From a virus, in IMG/VR virus record IMGVR_UViG_3300042546_000155: DNA of 64,000 nt, one strand, 5' to 3'. The notes beneath the pieces were generated by a model. The model was not told the origin of the DNA. It searched no databases and saw only the letters and a list, made by a program, of their open reading frames with translations. The position numbers were made by a program, and so were the translations under genes. This document shows, piece after piece, positions 28,460 to 63,752 of this stretch (position 1 is its first letter; every line of letters starts with the position of its first letter).

Positions 28460-28909
28460 TTACTTTTTGCCAAACAGTTCCGTTTCTGTTATAATCTGAA
28501 ATTCCCAACCTTTAAACTCACAATACTCTCTAGCCGCTTTCCACTTGGCTTGATTAACGCCATAGGTCATAACCTCAGAGATAAATCTTTTAGTGCGTCT
28601 CTTAGGCACCTTAGGCTCTAATGTTTGTGCCTTGGGTTTAACCTCTAATAGCATAGTCTTTATCGATCCATCAGGCAACATAGCTTCCACATAGAAATCG
28701 ACAAAGTATCTGTGTAGTCTACCGTCAACTGGTGATCTATATGGTATTACTATTTCTTCCGAAGACCATGCTACGATACTAGAGTTCTCATCTAGATTTT
28801 TCATTACTTGCTTCTCCCAACCAGAACGATATACGATATTGGTTGGGTCACCTCTATACTTTTTGGGAAACATTGGTTTGAAGAAGCCTTGTTTGTATTC
28901 TCTTGCCAT
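28460..28909 (-). CDS. gp4: Head completion nuclease
   Basis: KYRGDPTNIVYRSGWE, WSSEE...HRYFVDF, EVKP, NQAKW.AA. Confidence 0.92.
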   Translation of the reverse strand: MAREYKQGFFKPMFPKKYRGDPTNIVYRSGWEKQVMKNLDENSSIVAWSSEEIVIPYRSPVDGRLHRYFVDFYVEAMLPDGSIKTMLLEVKPKAQTLEPKVPKRRTKRFISEVMTYGVNQAKWKAAREYCEFKGWEFQIITETELFGKK

Positions 28910-36890: not shown

Positions 36891-37115
36891 TTAAAGAGGG
36901 AGTTGGGAGGTATCCGATTTCTTGAGGAAGTGTAGATTTTCGGCTTCTAGTTTGATTTTGGATTTAAGAACACCAGAGACTAACTTAGCGGCTACTTCTA
37001 CCTCAAAACCGTTTTCGTCGCAATACATACAGATTGCATCGATATAAGGTATGTCTTTCATATAGACCATTTCTTCAATGGCCATAGAAAAGCGATTGAT
37101 ATCTTCGGCGTTCAT
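36891..37115 (-). CDS. gp33: Late promoter transcription co-activator
   Basis: Start MNAEDI at 37115; F...IE..V......YIDAI..YC..N..EVE..AKL.S..LK.KI..EA..L.FL. Confidence 0.85.
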   Translation of the reverse strand: MNAEDINRFSMAIEEMVYMKDIPYIDAICMYCDENGFEVEVAAKLVSGVLKSKIKLEAENLHFLKKSDTSQLPL

Positions 37116-37306
37116 ACAAACATACCAAAGATGCCAGAGAGAAGGGAGATTGTGATAGCAGAGGCGATAGTGATTTCGATTACTCCTGTTGCCCAATAAC
37201 CAAGAATAGAACCTAGAAACAAACCAGCGAAGGCACAGATATAGACATTGGTGCTTAGAGCAAAGTTAAACTCACGCATACCAGTGTATTTGTCTTTCTC
37301 ACTCAT
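37112..37306 (-). CDS. Small membrane protein
   Basis: Two hydrophobic segments; AAAGGA SD. Confidence 0.6.
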   Translation of the reverse strand: MSEKDKYTGMREFNFALSTNVYICAFAGLFLGSILGYWATGVIEITIASAITISLLSGIFGMFV

Positions 37307-37324
37307 AATATAATCCTTTCATGA

Positions 37325-37477
37325 AAGCGGGCCCGTTCTGTTTCGAGGTGGAGCCCATACCCAAAGGATTACGCTGCTAGAGCGAAAGCCTCATATGCAT
37401 TGTTGTCGTTTGCATTTACGATTTGCTTTCGATCTCCTTACGACCTTACTGAATCCTGTCGAACCTGAATCCGGCCC
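37325..37477 (-). ncRNA. ssrA: Two-piece tmRNA, coding piece
   Basis: Begins GGGCCGG-ATTCAGGTTCGAC. Tag frame 37413..37369 after TAAAT encodes ANDNNAYEAFALAA*. 3' end approximate. Confidence 0.92.
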
Positions 37478-37478
37478 A

Positions 37479-37913
37479 TCATAAAGAAACATGAGGATTG
37501 GTTTTCTTCATTACAGATTTCAATCTGCCTCTCCACCATCCTACAGGATGTTCATTCAAAGAAAACTGACCTTCAGCGTAGCCATCATTGAACCAATATC
37601 TTTGAGTTCTAATCTTACGACCATCAGTTCCCGTAGGATACTTTCTCTCTTTCTTTGAATGGTTTGCCCATCTAAGAGTGTTCGTAAGTTCTGCTCCTTT
37701 TTTGGCGCCTTCATTGATTGCGATAAAAGAACATTCATCGGAAGTTAGTAATCCCAACAAACCTTTCCAAGCAATCAAATCTTGCCAGTGTCCATGTTCC
37801 TCATATAGTTTCTTATGCGCTTCGGCATGTTCCTCTATAGTGAGTTCAACGATATTTTCTGGTTCATCATTCCCACCCATATGTTTAGGAATGATATGGT
37901 GCTTATGTTTCAT
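37479..37913 (-). CDS. HNH homing endonuclease inside the tmRNA intervening segment
   Basis: HKHHIIPKHMGG.D...N.VELT.EEHAEAH motif; C-terminal WFNDG...GW.RGR DNA-binding-type repeat; AGGAGA SD. Confidence 0.85.
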   Translation of the reverse strand: MKHKHHIIPKHMGGNDEPENIVELTIEEHAEAHKKLYEEHGHWQDLIAWKGLLGLLTSDECSFIAINEGAKKGAELTNTLRWANHSKKERKYPTGTDGRKIRTQRYWFNDGYAEGQFSLNEHPVGWWRGRLKSVMKKTNPHVSL

Positions 37914-37918
37914 AATAA

Positions 37919-37953
37919 TCTCCTGTCGATATTACTATTTATAAATCGACAAG
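37919..37953 (-). promoter_or_regulatory. Late promoter TATAAATA in the loop of an RBS-sequestering hairpin
   Basis: CTTGTCGAT-TTATAAATAGTAAT-ATCGACAGG-AGA; the 3' arm overlaps the SD. Confidence 0.75.
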
Positions 37954-37969
37954 TTTTCACATTTCCTTA

Positions 37970-38038
37970 TGGTGGACCGGGTGGGAACTGCCCCCACGTC
38001 CAAGAAGCCTATATTCCGTCTCTCAACGATCTAAGCAT
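37970..38038 (-). ncRNA. ssrA: Two-piece tmRNA, acceptor piece
   Basis: GAC-GTGGG-GGCAGTT-CCCAC-CCGGTCC-A-CCA. Pairs with GGGCCGG to give G3.U70. 5' TGCTT/GATC pair with AAGCA/GATC of the coding piece. Confidence 0.92.
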
Positions 38039-38040
38039 AT

Positions 38041-38048
38041 TATTTATA
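38041..38048 (-). promoter_or_regulatory. T4-type late promoter for pre-tmRNA
   Basis: TATAAATA immediately upstream of the acceptor piece. Confidence 0.7.
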
Positions 38049-38073
38049 ACATACGGTGAGTTTTTTGTCAAGA

Positions 38074-42475: not shown

Positions 42476-42690
42476 CTTACGATACATCCTTTTAGGTCGG
42501 AGAGTAAACCATTTAGAACAGCCCGTGTAAAGGCATCTTCGTTACCATTTAAAAGATTGTGAAGGTTCATGGCATAATAGGCTGCATTATCACCACGAAT
42601 GAACACGCCGGGCCAGTCATCACCAATCTGGGTCGGACCGGTCTCTACTCGTTTGTCAAGTTCAACATCAATTTTACGAATCTCAGGCAT
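42472..42690 (-). CDS. Hypothetical protein
   Basis: RVETGP.Q.GDDWPGVFIRGDNA. Confidence 0.6.
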   Translation of the reverse strand: MPEIRKIDVELDKRVETGPTQIGDDWPGVFIRGDNAAYYAMNLHNLLNGNEDAFTRAVLNGLLSDLKGCIVR

Positions 42691-43075
42691 AACGATCCTT
42701 TAGAAAGTTTTCCATGTAGTGACGGATATTTGCCGCACCGATAGGATTGGCACTGTGAACATTATACGAGAAGCCATCTAGGTTGTCAACATTCTCCATG
42801 ATCCAATCGCACAGCCACTTGGCGAAGTCATACCCGGTAAACTCACGAGGCGCACCAGTGCGAGGTGCACCGTCCATATACTCGTCCATAGGACCGTATG
42901 CAGACTCCAGATTGTAATGAACATCTGCAAGGTCATGATCGAACGATACATGATACGGAAGACCATAGTTCTTCACATACCAAACAGCATCATGATAGTT
43001 CCGTGCCAGGCGCCAATCTGAATCAAGATCAGGCAGATTGCGCAGGTCATCCAGATAGAGTTTATACATCATCAT
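42683..43075 (-). CDS. Cyclic-phosphate-processing receiver-domain protein
   Basis: LYLDDLR, SFDHDL, TGYD..KWL and VHSANP.GA motifs. Confidence 0.7.
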   Translation of the reverse strand: MMMYKLYLDDLRNLPDLDSDWRLARNYHDAVWYVKNYGLPYHVSFDHDLADVHYNLESAYGPMDEYMDGAPRTGAPREFTGYDFAKWLCDWIMENVDNLDGFSYNVHSANPIGAANIRHYMENFLKDRYA

Positions 43076-43220
43076 AAAACATATCCCAGTAACCTTGATC
43101 CCAATAATTGGCGAGAGCGAGACTTACACCATCGTATGGATTATCCACTAGATTGATGCCATCTTCAAAATAAGCCTCACAACCTTCATTGTAGGCAATT
43201 TGTTTTAGTTCGTCGGTCAT
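43062..43220 (-). CDS. Rmf/CrpP-fold-like small protein, 52 aa, not in ORF track
   Basis: AYNEGCEAY..G.....NPY.......YWDQGY matches the RMF-type A..G..A...G....PY....W..GW pattern; ATGA-coupled to the ligase. Confidence 0.5.
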   Translation of the reverse strand: MTDELKQIAYNEGCEAYFEDGINLVDNPYDGVSLALANYWDQGYWDMFYDDV

Positions 43221-44335
43221 AGGTCTCTCTTACCTTTCCAGAAAGCAACGACAACGGGGAAGCGGAGTTTGCCGTCTTCCGTTTTGTTCTGATACCGTAC
43301 CGTTACGCTTGTATAACCATAATCATTATACAATAGGTCTTTAAGGAAGTCAAACTTCCCACGCACTCCTGCAAACTGTGTGGTTCCGTCTTTCAAACGG
43401 ATTTCAATCCGCTTGACAGCACCTGCCCAATTGCCTTTACCTTCTTCCATAGAAACGATTTCAAATTCATCGTCCTCAAATTCCTTATGCTTGATAAGGT
43501 TCTTTGAACGCTTACCTTCATAAAGAGAGTCAGGAACACGAAGCATTTGACCTTCATATCCTTCTTCAAGGTTCCAAGAAAGATTTTCCATAATTTGTTC
43601 TTCGCTTTCTGCAATTGTAGATTCTACAAAACGGATACATGGAGAAGGATGATCTTCCAACAAAACAGCACCTAAAAATTCTTTACGGTTCATAAAAGTC
43701 CAATTGCGATCATAATCAATCATATCATAAACATGATATTGGATCGTCTTTCTGGACTCTTCCAGATCATCAACAGTCGGTTTAGTCTTACGAGCAAGAG
43801 AAATAATCTTCTCAAAGTCGTTTTTTAGTTCATGATTATACAGTTCTCCATCAAGAACAATTTCGGGATATTCCCGAAAGAACGGTTCGAGTGCTTCATG
43901 AATATGAGGCGCAGAAAGAATAGGCTTGCCGTTGCGTGACTGCATACCGTCTTTTGATACGAGACAACGAACACCATCAAGTTTCGGCTGCGAGTAATAA
44001 GGGAACTTGTTATGCTTTGCAGGGTTATATTTGTCGGCAAGCATACACTCAACGAACTTGGCACCATTCTTAGCCCAAGTGGTAGTCTGATGATACTTGC
44101 CTTGATATTCTTTCTTTGTGATTTCAGAAAGCACTTCTAACTCAACCTGTTCTTTCACAGTGGTTGCGTTAGCACGACCGACATTCTTGGCCTCTGGATA
44201 CTTCCACCCAGAAACTACAATCTTGCCATCTTTGATGCCGGAATGAGTGCGATACTTTGTATCGTCATACTCCATCCACCACACACGGGTGTTACCTTTA
44301 GAGTCAATCTTGTAAAGTTTCTGGGTGGCTTTCAT
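43217..44335 (-). CDS. ATP-dependent DNA ligase
   Basis: QPKLDGVRC, LDGELY, YEGQMLR, KRS..L.K.K, LRFP. Confidence 0.92.
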   Translation of the reverse strand: MKATQKLYKIDSKGNTRVWWMEYDDTKYRTHSGIKDGKIVVSGWKYPEAKNVGRANATTVKEQVELEVLSEITKKEYQGKYHQTTTWAKNGAKFVECMLADKYNPAKHNKFPYYSQPKLDGVRCLVSKDGMQSRNGKPILSAPHIHEALEPFFREYPEIVLDGELYNHELKNDFEKIISLARKTKPTVDDLEESRKTIQYHVYDMIDYDRNWTFMNRKEFLGAVLLEDHPSPCIRFVESTIAESEEQIMENLSWNLEEGYEGQMLRVPDSLYEGKRSKNLIKHKEFEDDEFEIVSMEEGKGNWAGAVKRIEIRLKDGTTQFAGVRGKFDFLKDLLYNDYGYTSVTVRYQNKTEDGKLRFPVVVAFWKGKRDL

Positions 44336-48593: not shown

Positions 48594-49817
48594 TTAACCC
48601 TTCACATTTAGCACCTGACGGAGACGATGCACGATTTCCACAAGGTCATCCTGTGCAGCCATGACCGCACCAATGTCCTTGTAGGCAGCCGGTGACTCGT
48701 CAATTACATCAGCGTCCTTACGGCATTCGATACCCTCGGTCGCCTTGATATGATCATCCAGCGTGATTGCCTTACGAGCCGCATTGCGGGACATACGACG
48801 ACCAGCACCATGAGAACACGAACAAAACGAATCCTGGTTACCAAGACCACGGACAATGAACGAACCCGTACCCATCGAACCCGGGATAATACCCAGATCG
48901 TCCTTACGGGCACGAACCGCACCCTTACGGGTCACCCACACATTCTTGCCAAAGTGGTTCTCCTTAGCAATATAGTTGTGGTGACAGTTCACAGCCTTTT
49001 CATCAGAAACAACGAAAGCCGGTAAACGCTCACGAAGAACCTTTAGCACGGCATCCATCATTAACTGACGGTTAAGAGCAGCAAACTCCTGTGCCCAAGA
49101 TACAGCCTCTACATAATCATCGAACAGTTCCGTATGTTCTACAAGATAGGACAAGTCCTGATCCGGTAGATACGGCAGGATATGATAGCGTTCCATTTCA
49201 CGCTTTGCAGCATCAATGAAATACTGACCAATCTTGTTACCTACACCACGGGACCCGGAGTGCAGCATTACCCACACATAGTCATCCTCATCAAGACACA
49301 GTTCGATAAAGTGGTTGCCCGTTCCCAGGGTACCCAGGAACTCAACATCCTTATGGGACTTGATCTTCGGGTGCTTCTCAACGATCTTCGCATAGCGATC
49401 CGCCAGAATGTTCCATGCACCAGCAACATTCAGCGGCATATCAAGCCAGGTACCACGATCATTCTTACCACCGTTGTCGGTACGACCATGCGGAACCACG
49501 GACTCGATATGAGAACGCAGCGAGTGAAGGTTGTCCGGTAGATCGTTCGCCGTCAATGACAGACGAACAGCCATCATACCACAACCGATATCAACACCAA
49601 CAGCAGCCGGCACAACTGCACCAACCGTCGGAATAACCGACCCAACCGTTGCACCCTTGCCAAGATGGACGTCCGGCATAACAGCAACATGGCCCGCAAT
49701 AAACGGGAGTGACGCAATGTTATCTAACTGGGTACGAGCATCAGCCTCGACCTCAACACCCTCGCACCACATCTTTAAACGCCCACCACGAGCGCCATCC
49801 ACATACTGATATGCCAT
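48594..49817 (-). CDS. rtcB: RtcB RNA ligase (3'-P/2',3'-cyclic-P to 5'-OH)
   Basis: MPDVHLGKG, GVDIGCG, LGTLGTGNHFIE, LHSGSRG, HHNY, RKGA, PGSMG, SHGAGR, DESP.AYK. Confidence 0.95.
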   Translation of the reverse strand: MAYQYVDGARGGRLKMWCEGVEVEADARTQLDNIASLPFIAGHVAVMPDVHLGKGATVGSVIPTVGAVVPAAVGVDIGCGMMAVRLSLTANDLPDNLHSLRSHIESVVPHGRTDNGGKNDRGTWLDMPLNVAGAWNILADRYAKIVEKHPKIKSHKDVEFLGTLGTGNHFIELCLDEDDYVWVMLHSGSRGVGNKIGQYFIDAAKREMERYHILPYLPDQDLSYLVEHTELFDDYVEAVSWAQEFAALNRQLMMDAVLKVLRERLPAFVVSDEKAVNCHHNYIAKENHFGKNVWVTRKGAVRARKDDLGIIPGSMGTGSFIVRGLGNQDSFCSCSHGAGRRMSRNAARKAITLDDHIKATEGIECRKDADVIDESPAAYKDIGAVMAAQDDLVEIVHRLRQVLNVKG

Positions 49818-51394: not shown

Positions 51395-51715
51395 TTATCG
51401 AACATCCGTGTTAAGTTTCGGTTTACGAGTGCGGATCAATTCACGCTCAATTTCATGAGCATTTGATTTGCCACGAACGATTTGAACCACCTCAACAGTG
51501 AATGCCTCAGGGCCATACTTGCGAATTGCAAGCGACAATTTCCACGCTTTATCTTCTGACATGGCCCGCTGGACATGTTTCTGCCAGCGGCGCTTAAGGG
51601 ACTTAGACGGGGAACGATCATTAACAATCGTGACCCCGATATATTCCCGCTTGCCAATAGCCAAGCTATAGATTATGTGATTCGTGTCGCTGCGGCGTTT
51701 GCGTTTCTTGATCAT
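51395..51715 (-). CDS. GIY-YIG family endonuclease-like protein
   Basis: IIYSL....EYIGVT...RRWQKH...AIRKYG..AF...E.ELI....P.LN; start set at ATG 51715 from the promoter position. Confidence 0.7.
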   Translation of the reverse strand: MIKKRKRRSDTNHIIYSLAIGKREYIGVTIVNDRSPSKSLKRRWQKHVQRAMSEDKAWKLSLAIRKYGPEAFTVEVVQIVRGKSNAHEIERELIRTRKPKLNTDVR

Positions 51716-51721
51716 GCTCAT

Positions 51722-51778
51722 ATAATAGGACAAAACGGAACGGAAGTCAAGCGAAAAAAGTGCGACAAGATGTCGCAC
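51722..51778 (-). promoter_or_regulatory. Early promoter with upstream palindromic box
   Basis: TTGACT-17-TATTAT; box GTGCGACATCTTGTCGCAC 9 bp upstream of -35. Confidence 0.75.
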
Positions 51779-58031: not shown

Positions 58032-58430
58032 TCACTTCTTTTTCACATGGGACTTTCTAACTCGCACCATAATCCATTCGTTATAGTATTGCTCGGAGAT
58101 TAGCGCATCCCTATCAAACTGTTCCTTAGCCTCATAATACGACGCTTCGCCTTTGCTCTTACATAGACGGATGATTTCTCGGGTGAACTTCTCCTTACCG
58201 AAGATTTCCACGTGGTGTAAAAGTTCTTTATTGCTGCCATAGTAATCCTGCCAATCGGAGTCGACCTGCTTCTTTACTCGCTTACCTTTCTTCTTGGTAG
58301 TGCGAGTGAATTTGAATAGTTTCTTCCCAATATATTTTCGCCCTGTAGGAACACAGGTGATGCAATATACGAAAGCTTGATAGCCTTCTGGGATTTCTTC
58401 TAAGGGTTTGTTCTCGTATGTCCATGTCAT
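58032..58430 (-). CDS. GIY-YIG endonuclease II (DenA-like)
   Basis: FVYCIT...TGRKYIGKK, SDWQDYYGS, F.REI..LC, YYN.WI. Confidence 0.75.
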   Translation of the reverse strand: MTWTYENKPLEEIPEGYQAFVYCITCVPTGRKYIGKKLFKFTRTTKKKGKRVKKQVDSDWQDYYGSNKELLHHVEIFGKEKFTREIIRLCKSKGEASYYEAKEQFDRDALISEQYYNEWIMVRVRKSHVKKK

Positions 58431-62917: not shown

Positions 62918-63475
62918 TTACTTCCTCTTACAATCTTTCCCGTGACCCCATTTTATAAAGTTAGGTCCACTCATTACTTTACCACAAACAGGACATTCCT
63001 TTTTGATTTGAAAATTATGTGTTCCTTCTTTCAATCTTCTATGTGAAGGATTGTTTTCACCTAAAAAGTTATGCGACCCATTTACAACTCTCTTTTTGGC
63101 ATTTTCTGTCTGCCATTCGGAACTAACGAAGATGTGTTCTCCATTTTCAACCAATCTTCTTTGCGTTTTACTTTGAATGTATCCGCCATAAAAATTGTGT
63201 GTTCCGTTTTCTAATCTTTCTTTGTTAGAAAGACGTCCCAACTCCGATTGCTCTTGTGGTGTTAGGCTCAATCGTTTAGTTATCTTATAACAGGCACCGT
63301 AGTCACCATTTATCCAATGCTCCCAGAAATGGTCAACAACAGATAATGCTACAAGATTAGACAACTCGTTATTGTTATGATTGCCATCTATGTGATGAAT
63401 ATCATAACTTCTGCCTTCGGAATCTTTTGGAATAGGACCGTGAGCCTGCTCATACAGGCGACGATAAATAGACAT
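62918..63475 (-). CDS. HNH homing endonuclease
   Basis: Start MSIYRR at 63475; YDIHHIDGNH.NN..SNL.AL...DH; repeated NGTHNF units; C-terminal CPVCG. Confidence 0.85.
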   Translation of the reverse strand: MSIYRRLYEQAHGPIPKDSEGRSYDIHHIDGNHNNNELSNLVALSVVDHFWEHWINGDYGACYKITKRLSLTPQEQSELGRLSNKERLENGTHNFYGGYIQSKTQRRLVENGEHIFVSSEWQTENAKKRVVNGSHNFLGENNPSHRRLKEGTHNFQIKKECPVCGKVMSGPNFIKWGHGKDCKRK

Positions 63476-63545
63476 GCTGGCACTCCCTAAAAGTGTTAGA
63501 GTCCGTGGAGTTCGTACCTCGTGACGGACAACACTATTTAGCAAA
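63464..63545 (-). promoter_or_regulatory. Structured endonuclease leader, copy B
   Basis: TTTGCTAAATAG...GTCCGT-CAC-GAG..CTC-C-ACGGAC-TCTAAC-ACT..GGAGT-GCCAGC-ATGTCTATTTAT. Confidence 0.7.
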
Positions 63546-63554
63546 CCAGCATTT

Positions 63555-63752
63555 TCACTCATGACCAGAATCCTTATTCTGCATAGTAATAGCCCACTCA
63601 GTGAGGTCTTTGTCAAACTCCTTGACCAACGTATCATGAAGTTCTTTTTCAGGGTCAATGCCACATATGCTTTTCAAATCCTTGATCAGTTCTTGTGATA
63701 TCTCGGTCTTATATGTAAGAGTAAGACCATCCCATTCAAACTTACCTATCAT
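63555..63752 (-). CDS. Hypothetical protein
   Basis: MIGKF start, ATGA-coupled to thyX; EL..DLK...GID.EKEL resembles the gp23 C-terminal motif. Confidence 0.5.
   Translation of the reverse strand: MIGKFEWDGLTLTYKTEISQELIKDLKSICGIDPEKELHDTLVKEFDKDLTEWAITMQNKDSGHE

Follow-up and report, generated by a model that had tools for sequence, protein, structure and literature searches.

A permuted tmRNA gene in a T4-like phage genome and the predicted HNH homing-endonuclease gene that occupies its spacer

The viral DNA of IMG/VR record IMGVR_UViG_3300042546_000155, a stretch of 64,000 nucleotides (nt) that is called the window here, carries a permuted transfer-messenger RNA (tmRNA, ssrA) gene of the alphaproteobacterial type on its minus strand, at about 38037-37326. 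The acceptor piece, which is the 3' half of the tRNA-like domain, comes first and the coding piece with the tag follows, and between the two lies a spacer of 492 nt that is filled by a protein gene of 144 amino acids (aa). The locus raises the question of whether such a gene can still yield a working tmRNA, and of what the protein gene does inside it. The answer that we consider likely is that the tmRNA gene is a functional ssrA of a T4-like phage, and that a selfish HNH homing-endonuclease gene has settled in its discarded spacer.

Two Rfam covariance models recognise the tmRNA gene, with E-values that refer to a search of all 64 kb with 4227 families. RF04321 (tmRNA_permuted) scores 62.5 bits against a threshold of 47 (E 1e-9, span 38031-37369), and RF01849 (alpha_tmRNA) passes narrowly with 51.4 bits against a threshold of 50 (E 2e-11, span 38075-37326). 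Uninterrupted orthologues in syntenic phage contigs reach 82-105 bits, and the window scores lower because 492 nt are inserted between its two pieces. ARAGORN makes no tmRNA call on the window and misses every interrupted tmRNA gene seen. It calls a permuted tmRNA in all 11 of the uninterrupted relatives on which it was run, with the tag of the window, ANDNNAYEAFALAA, in each of them except locus L005 (ANDNNAYEAIALAA). A permuted alphaproteobacterial-type tmRNA had already been proposed at this place in an earlier, sequence-only reading, and the covariance models, the covariation and the orthologues bear that proposal out. The acceptor stem with its G3:U70 pair, the discriminator A, the encoded CCA, the GGCAGUU T-loop and the tag that it described are all present on the minus strand (Table 1). 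The interval that it gave, 37325-38038, covers the gene and leaves out the promoter, which extends to 38071. The tag keeps its ALAA end, and its resume context, UAAAU-GCA, is retained.

The proposed structure was compared with that of relatives by scoring 38 pairs on an alignment of 13 sequences, including that of Methylophilales phage Melnitz; the controls were alignments in which the partners were slid by 1-3 columns, and 500 shuffles. Of all cells, 96.3% are paired, against 39-48% in the slid controls, and 16 pairs have changed on both sides, against 0-5. None of the 500 shuffles matches the observed pairing values. G3:U is found in 13 of the 13 sequences, and three pairs of the acceptor stem have changed on both sides, the versions among relatives being GGGCCGG/CCGGUCC, GGGGGCG/CGCCUCC and GGGGGUG/CACCUCC. 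The helices UCUUG/CAGGA, ACGG/UCGU and GAUC/GAUC, which join the two pieces, are 92-95% paired with compensatory changes, and GAUC/GAUC becomes GGUC/GACC in relatives. UGCUU/AAGCA is also present, but it is invariant and thus without comparative support, so that all three of the inter-piece pairings claimed earlier exist and two of them, UCUUG/CAGGA and GAUC/GAUC, covary. The loop of the 3'-terminal hairpin, CCUCGAAACAGAA, is conserved in relatives, and its stem is swapped for GCCACCA/UGGUGGC in L005 and L007.

The spacer is hypervariable among relatives and measures about 70-130 nt when it holds no HNH gene. Its arms always pair, for example as UAGAUACA/UGUAUCUA and UAAACAGA/UCUGUUUA, and five of eight of these pairs have changed on both sides. 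In the window the spacer ends, UAAGGAAAUG ... CAUGUUUCUUUA, followed by UGAU before G1, pair with each other and lengthen the acceptor stem. The codons of the tag vary among relatives by six synonymous changes and one non-synonymous change, and six of the seven variable sites are third codon positions. Since the pairing covaries and the tag varies synonymously, strong selection acts both on the structure of the RNA and on the message that it encodes. In L005 the spacer, which lacks the HNH gene, contains two T-arm-like hairpins, GGUGGUUCGAUUCCACC and UGAGGUUCGAUUCCUCA (L005:1230-1330), possibly left over from tRNA-like elements.

The 144-aa protein encoded in the spacer starts MKHKHHIIPKHMGG and consists of an HNH module (residues 1-50) and a C-terminal part of about 90 aa. 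It matches phrog_655, 'homing endonuclease', at 7e-13, and its sequence match in the PDB is the HNH domain of a group II maturase (E 0.0045). Residues H5, H6, N20, H29 and H33 are invariant in 16 HNH homologues, and the protein is predicted to be an intact HNH endonuclease. In cultured phages no full-length homologue was found, only the N-terminal module, in cyanophages. The neighbouring gene of 278 aa was used to retrieve 23 syntenic IMG/VR loci, 20 of which were scanned with Rfam. Twelve of the 20 have an uninterrupted tmRNA gene in the same place, and four (L001-L004) are interrupted like the window. The protein of this neighbouring gene is 66-69% identical to that of the window in the HNH-bearing loci and 58-67% identical in the HNH-less loci; the presence of the HNH gene, as judged from these identities, does not track the relatedness of the syntenic loci.

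The same arrangement recurs in distant phages. Among the 80 IMG/VR loci returned by a search with the HNH protein, a structural scan asked for two things: before the ATG, a T-arm followed by 7 nt and A-CCA, and at the stop codon, a complementary 5' strand that includes G3:U. It flagged only the window, L025-29, L030, L031-33, L035 and L037, and in these Rfam confirmed a tmRNA that spans or flanks the reading frame. Full-length HNH homologues thus lie between CCA and G1 in five lineages besides that of the window. The acceptor stems differ, the six T-loops are GGCAGUU, UUCAAAU, UUCGAUU, UGCGAAU, UUCAAUU and GGCGGUA, and there are four other tags, ANDSNYNYALAA and ANESVYQLAA among them. In four of the six interrupted tmRNAs the HNH stop codon UGA lies exactly 1 nt before G1, by way of a UGAU that is kept even in HNH-less genes. 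In a tree of 65 non-redundant HNH proteins, the tmRNA-linked ones fall into three supported groups (approximate likelihood-ratio support, SH-aLRT, of 96, 94 and 98), and none of the other HNH proteins in the tree, about 40, has a tmRNA nearby. Six more HNH homologues are found directly beside a permuted tmRNA gene, mostly one with a beta-type score, and a further three are within about 850 nt of such a gene.

In L036, L039, L041, L059, L097 and L034, a related HNH lineage stands beside an uninterrupted permuted tmRNA gene, either divergent from it or immediately upstream, and the tags of these tmRNAs include ANDEVFALAA, ANDAQFALAA and ANDNVASEDFALAA. L035 has a second reading frame with an HNH module on the opposite strand, just downstream of its interrupted tmRNA gene (L035:2115-2552, minus strand).

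The tmRNA genes of L001-4 and L025, which come from five independent metagenomes, have a tag region that is almost base-for-base that of the window. Both halves of their tRNA-like domain are of another type, with the T-loop UUCAAAU and a P2 pairing of their own, CGGAA/UUCCG. This type of domain is also found in an unrelated, HNH-free lineage (L226-228 and L234) with a spacer of 44 nt and the tag ANDNFAPFDIALAA. Since foreign tRNA-like halves are joined to a tag region of the window type, the L001 tmRNA is a chimera whose breakpoints flank the spacer. Such a chimera is the footprint that would be expected of endonuclease-driven repair with co-conversion. Taken together, these comparisons lead us to favour, with some reserve, the view that an HNH lineage has specialised on the permuted tmRNA genes of phages. 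It would use the spacer as a safe harbour that needs no intron, move between divergent tmRNA genes and swap their tRNA-like domains to give chimeras, with a sister lineage living beside beta-type tmRNA genes.

The HNH gene also appears to have a switch of its own. A hairpin ahead of the gene masks with its 3' arm the AGG of the Shine-Dalgarno sequence and holds TATAAATA in its loop. Its fold has an energy of -11.9 kcal/mol (z = -3.0; 1 of 200 shuffles is as good). The same design is found in L031, with arms similar to those of the window, and in L035 and L037, with wholly different arms (CUAUCCUAU/AUAGGAUAG); the arms covary among these four lineages. L025 and L030 have no hairpin, and their Shine-Dalgarno sequence is in the spacer arm right after CCA. 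The gene for the late-transcription coactivator gp33 (PF16805 match, 4e-20) is located 300 nt downstream. A clear late-type promoter element sits in the spacer, where it is predicted to serve the HNH gene, and the hairpin, the promoter in its loop and gp33 provide the parts of a putative late switch of the I-TevI type.

Table 1. Positions of the tmRNA gene, the HNH gene and other genes named in the text (window numbering)
Feature	Position	Strand	Description and basis
tmRNA precursor promoter (predicted)	38041..38071	-	TTGACA-N17-TGnTATAAATA, sigma-70 -35 and extended -10; -35 TTGACA 38071-38066, 17-nt spacer, TG 38051-38050, -10 TATAAA(TA) 38048-38041
Predicted transcription start	near 38037-38035	-	
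Acceptor piece (3' half of tRNA-like domain)	37970..38037	-	Rfam alignments, structural scan, covariation; 5' end inferred from promoter; 5' strands of inter-piece helices UGCUU, GAUC, ACGG, UCUUG
T-arm	37997-37981	-	GUGGG / GGCAGUU / CCCAC, in acceptor piece
Acceptor stem	37477-37471 with 37980-37974	-	GGGCCGG with CCGGUCC, including G3:U70
Discriminator A; encoded CCA	37973; 37972-37970	-	
Spacer (intervening sequence)	37478..37969	-	492 nt between CCA and G1; predicted removal during maturation
Ribosome-binding-site hairpin	37922..37953	-	9-bp stem CUUGUCGAU/AUCGACAGG; TATAAATA in loop at 37943-37936
Shine-Dalgarno sequence of HNH gene	37924-37920	-	AGGAG
HNH homing-endonuclease gene (predicted)	37479..37913	-	144 aa; stop UGA 37481-37479, 1 nt short of G1 of coding piece
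Coding piece	37326..37477	-	Rfam alpha_tmRNA alignment to model position 355, covariation, two-strand cofold; 3' end approximate; contains GGGCCGG, helix 3' strands CAGGA, UCGU, GAUC, AAGCA, tag frame, 3' hairpin
Tag reading frame	37369..37413	-	Translation: resume codon GCA, tag ANDNNAYEAFALAA, stop UAA
3'-terminal hairpin	37329..37357	-	GGGCUC ... GGGCCC, loop CCUCGAAACAGAA; from sequence, fits 3' end of Rfam alpha_tmRNA
Conserved 64-aa reading frame	37112-37306	-	Two hydrophobic stretches
TnsA-like endonuclease gene	28460-28909	-	
cREC receiver-domain protein gene	42683-43075	-	PF20274, 5e-20
ATP-dependent ligase gene	43217-44335		
RtcB RNA ligase gene	48594-49817	-	PF01139, 2e-127
GIY-YIG endonuclease gene	51395-51778	-	Free-standing
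SegE-like GIY-YIG endonuclease gene	58032-58430	-	Free-standing
HNH_3 endonuclease gene	62918-63664	-	

These elements suggest how the locus would work. A strong sigma-70-type promoter would drive a single precursor, in which the acceptor stem and the covarying extension stem bring the two tRNA-like ends together. Host tRNA-processing enzymes (RNase P at G1, and 3' trimming to CCA) would then set free the acceptor piece, about 68 nt long, and the coding piece, about 150 nt long; to judge from Caulobacter, the two would remain base-paired. G3:U70 would allow charging with alanine, and with host SmpB the tmRNA would rescue stalled ribosomes and append ANDNNAYEAFALAA, probably keeping ribosomes available during the destruction of host DNA and mRNA by the phage. 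Since the spacer is discarded, insertion of the HNH gene would cost the RNA nothing; the gene would behave like an intron-borne endonuclease gene with no intron required. Placed in the loop of the precursor stem, it would take its stop codon from the conserved UGA immediately ahead of G1. The hairpin over its ribosome-binding site would silence it in the long precursor, and transcripts started at the late-type TATAAATA in the loop, which do not contain the 5' arm, would permit late synthesis of the enzyme, as for T4 I-TevI. Its presumed targets would be HNH-less tmRNA alleles in co-infecting relatives; after the cut, repair would copy the HNH gene in and drag flanking tmRNA sequence along.

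The phage background of the locus is plain. The window contains the T4-type genes gp6 and gp25 (baseplate), gp32, gp33, gp59, RNase H, ribonucleotide reductase, DNA ligase and PhoH. It is part of a T4-like phage genome, and the claim that the tmRNA is phage-encoded stands. Its closest cultured relatives are Melnitz and the Pelagibacter phages HTVC008M and Mosig, whose gp6 is 37-39% identical, and a megablast search with 24 kb of the window gave no match among cultured phages. No SmpB was found in a Pfam scan of 40 reading frames of the window (64-412 aa), in agreement with what had been read from the letters, nor in a 94%-complete relative; the positive control worked. With no SmpB from the phage, use of the host protein is the natural inference. 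Between the tmRNA gene and gp33 there is a conserved 64-aa reading frame, also found in L001, that has no family match.

The window encodes several other free-standing endonucleases (GIY-YIG, SegE-like GIY-YIG, HNH_3 and TnsA-like; Table 1), and the phage appears rich in selfish nucleases. It also encodes the RNA ligase RtcB, a cyclic-phosphate-processing cREC receiver-domain protein and an ATP-dependent ligase, which look like an RNA-repair set.

Several points weigh against a functional tmRNA gene with a mobile HNH gene in its spacer. The Pfam HNH family scores 18 bits on the spacer protein, under its cut-off of 21.4, and with an AlphaFold model of the protein (predicted local distance difference test score, pLDDT, of 77) the HNH-nuclease matches found by Foldseek in the PDB are not significant. 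The ratio of non-synonymous to synonymous substitution rates (dN/dS) of the HNH gene is 0.10-0.43 between lineages, as in purifying selection, but these values are rough since dS is saturated. The HNH tree is a quick one in which relatives share labels. The acceptor stem of the window is unlike that of most relatives and identical to the stems of L031 and the HNH-less L009; this is suggestive only of co-conversion in the window itself, and the rest of its tRNA-like domain is of the local type. A spacer of 492 nt, as against 70-130 nt in relatives, might slow processing. Finally, the -10 element of the tmRNA promoter reads TATAAATA, so that some additional late use may occur.

The HNH gene might instead be immobile, either an old insertion that was inherited vertically and lost many times, or a domesticated gene that serves, for example, to exclude competitors. 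An old insertion is conceivable, since the tmRNA gene is at the same locus in the distant T4-like backbones of L030, L031 and L034, and purifying selection would be expected of a useful protein no less than of a selfish one. However, of relatives that are equally close, some have the gene and others lack it. When the window is compared with the distant syntenic loci L030 and L031, the HNH proteins are 56-65% identical and the flanking proteins only 34-48%, and L035 and L037 carry the gene in unrelated backbones that are not syntenic. The chimeric tRNA-like domain of L001-4, moreover, requires lateral exchange centred on the spacer. We therefore regard an immobile HNH gene as unlikely.

A different account of the RNA was offered by the sequence-only reading, in which the phage infects an alphaproteobacterium and expresses the tmRNA late, possibly as a spare for host tmRNA that defence RNases have cut. 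The resemblance of the -10 element to a T4 late promoter is in its favour, but the promoter as a whole has a perfect TTGACA at 17 nt from the -10 and a TG. Neither TTGACA nor TATAAATA varies among 11 aligned sequences, and TTGACA is also present in Melnitz, whose authors placed its ssrA behind an early promoter (PMC9004378). Eight promoters with a perfect -35 and a good -10, this one among them, are found on the minus strand, all at 34958-57859 among replication and nucleotide-metabolism genes. At the structural genes a different element is used: CTAAATA stands 27-59 nt upstream of five gene starts, including those of gp6 and gp25 (window 3814-29671). The bias to the coding strand is 10:1 for ATAAATA and 8:3 for CTAAATA, and CTAAATA is the likely core of the late promoters of the phage. 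TATAAATA shows no enrichment, with 5 occurrences in the window against 4.7 expected. From its sigma-70-type elements, the set in the early region and CTAAATA at the structural genes, the tmRNA promoter belongs to the early class, and the claim of late expression is not supported. An automated promoter scan missed this promoter because it demands T at position 6 of the -10.

The idea of a spare for damaged host tmRNA gains something from the RtcB and cREC proteins of the window, from SsrA being the most frequent RtcB substrate in work cited in PMC11090510, and from the defence systems with SmpB-like domains that are predicted in PMC11090510. RtcB, however, is absent from five other tmRNA-bearing phages, including the 94%-complete close relative, and a pairing of tmRNA with RtcB was dropped as an idea for this want of co-occurrence. 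The literature searched shows no tmRNA-cutting defence nuclease, and the proposed replacement is left unsupported. As for the alphaproteobacterial host, the T-arm is typical of Pelagibacteraceae: in bacterial genomes its motif is found almost only there, with tags ANESYA[IL]AA, and 111 bacterial genomes with this T-arm, mostly Pelagibacteraceae, have a median spacer of 12 nt. This supports an origin of the tRNA-like domain in the SAR11 lineage, with no assignment of a host. Melnitz has a tmRNA of the same lineage, but its host, OM43, is not an alphaproteobacterium (PMC9004378), so that the type of tmRNA is an unsafe guide to the host and an alphaproteobacterium is a candidate host of the window phage. 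A late spare part for an alphaproteobacterial host thus seems improbable.

Decay of the tmRNA into a pseudogene after the insertion was considered and rejected as very improbable. Rfam scores about 40 bits under those of relatives and the missing ARAGORN call could be read as signs of decay, but the drop in score is an insertion penalty only. All conserved positions of both mature pieces are retained, the differences of the acceptor stem from most relatives are fully compensated, the precursor stem and the tag frame are intact, and six lineages keep the interrupted arrangement. That the RNA is a decoy which titrates host SmpB or blocks trans-translation with no tagging, as discussed for mycobacteriophage DS6A and its lone tRNA-like domain (PMC4131195), was likewise rejected and is hardly credible beside a complete tag frame under protein-level constraint with its resume context and ALAA end retained.

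Two further observations concern tmRNA genes elsewhere. The cultured jumbo phage Phosso of Sinorhizobium has an alphaproteobacterial-type permuted tmRNA (PV764938.1, about 349552-350240; L236:1901-2590; 113 and 108 bits) with the tag ANDNVSTKVALAA, which is unannotated in the record and missed by ARAGORN. Its spacer of about 410 nt has no reading frame above 57 aa and no HNH remnant. In L105, L153, L158, L159 and L213, three of which are labelled as Saccharimonadales metagenome-assembled genomes, a SAR11-type T-arm motif is followed by CAGCUCC-A-CCA. ARAGORN finds no tmRNA in L105, L153 and L158, and a script found no partner strand in any of the five contigs, which may hold unusual or interrupted tmRNA genes or be phage DNA binned into these genomes.

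If the HNH gene is mobile as proposed, a spacer that is cut away by tRNA-processing enzymes would be a third harmless hiding place for a selfish endonuclease in an essential gene, beside introns and inteins. Lateral exchange of tRNA-like halves between tmRNA genes would bear on the prediction of hosts from phage tmRNA. The interrupted genes and the 113-bit tmRNA of Phosso mark a blind spot of annotation with ARAGORN, and an endonuclease that recognises a conserved tmRNA gene would be a possible tool enzyme.

The kind of tmRNA found here is already known. Two-piece alphaproteobacterial-type ssrA has been described in Melnitz and pelagimyophages (Buchholz et al. 2022, PMC9004378), with 53 two-piece tmRNAs among 18,146 phage genomes (PMC9004378), and the tmRNA of the window is orthologous to these. 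The window shares with Melnitz a T4-like backbone, the gene order PDDEXK nuclease - ssrA - gp33 - gp59, the lack of a phage SmpB, an alignable two-piece tmRNA with the GGGGGCAGU T-arm and the acceptor stem, and the TTGACA...TATAAATA promoter. Melnitz differs in its short spacer with no gene, its tag ANDNYVPVDYALAA (read from the alignment) and a glutamine riboswitch reported nearby; neither this riboswitch nor any other Rfam family was found at the tmRNA locus of the window. The two-piece tmRNAs of Caulobacter and other alphaproteobacteria (RF01849, RF04321) have the same permuted order, processing logic, GGCRGU-type T-loop and ANDN...ALAA tag, and the predicted removal of the spacer here follows what is established for two-piece tmRNA (Keiler, Shapiro and Williams 2000, as cited in PMC9004378). 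The bacterial spacers are short, whereas here the gene is phage-borne and has a protein gene in its spacer.

In a census of 97,179 tmRNA sequences, homing-endonuclease genes were found only inside group I introns in the T-loop, and the spacers of permuted genes held only a tRNA-Ala gene, called 'unique', and a repeat element (PMC11915505). Those intron genes are likewise selfish endonuclease genes in a segment that the mature tmRNA lacks, but they are of the LAGLIDADG type, in self-splicing introns of one-piece genes (PMC11915505); here there is no intron and no ligation, only a discarded spacer. A full-text literature search for tmRNA combined with HNH, homing endonuclease or intervening gave no report, and as far as we found there is no earlier description of the HNH lineage in the spacer, of its switch or of the domain-swapped tmRNA.

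The closest parallels for the HNH gene itself are in T4. The gene for I-TevI, like those of other intron-borne or free-standing phage endonucleases, has a late promoter inside a hairpin that occludes its ribosome-binding site, so that it is translated from late transcripts but not from the long early ones. The HNH gene of the window resembles it in the hairpin over the Shine-Dalgarno sequence, in TATAAATA in the loop and in gp33-type late transcription. It differs in that a non-coding RNA gene takes the place of the host 'exon' and a processing spacer serves as the carrier, and in that two of six lineages lack the hairpin. The free-standing Seg and Mob endonucleases of T4 drive marker exclusion with co-conversion of flanking sequence. 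Like them, the HNH gene is patchy among close relatives and has adjacent sequence that appears co-converted, as in the chimeric tmRNA of L001. The Seg and Mob genes, however, are located between protein genes, whereas the HNH gene lies inside an RNA gene, the product of which it would leave undisrupted.

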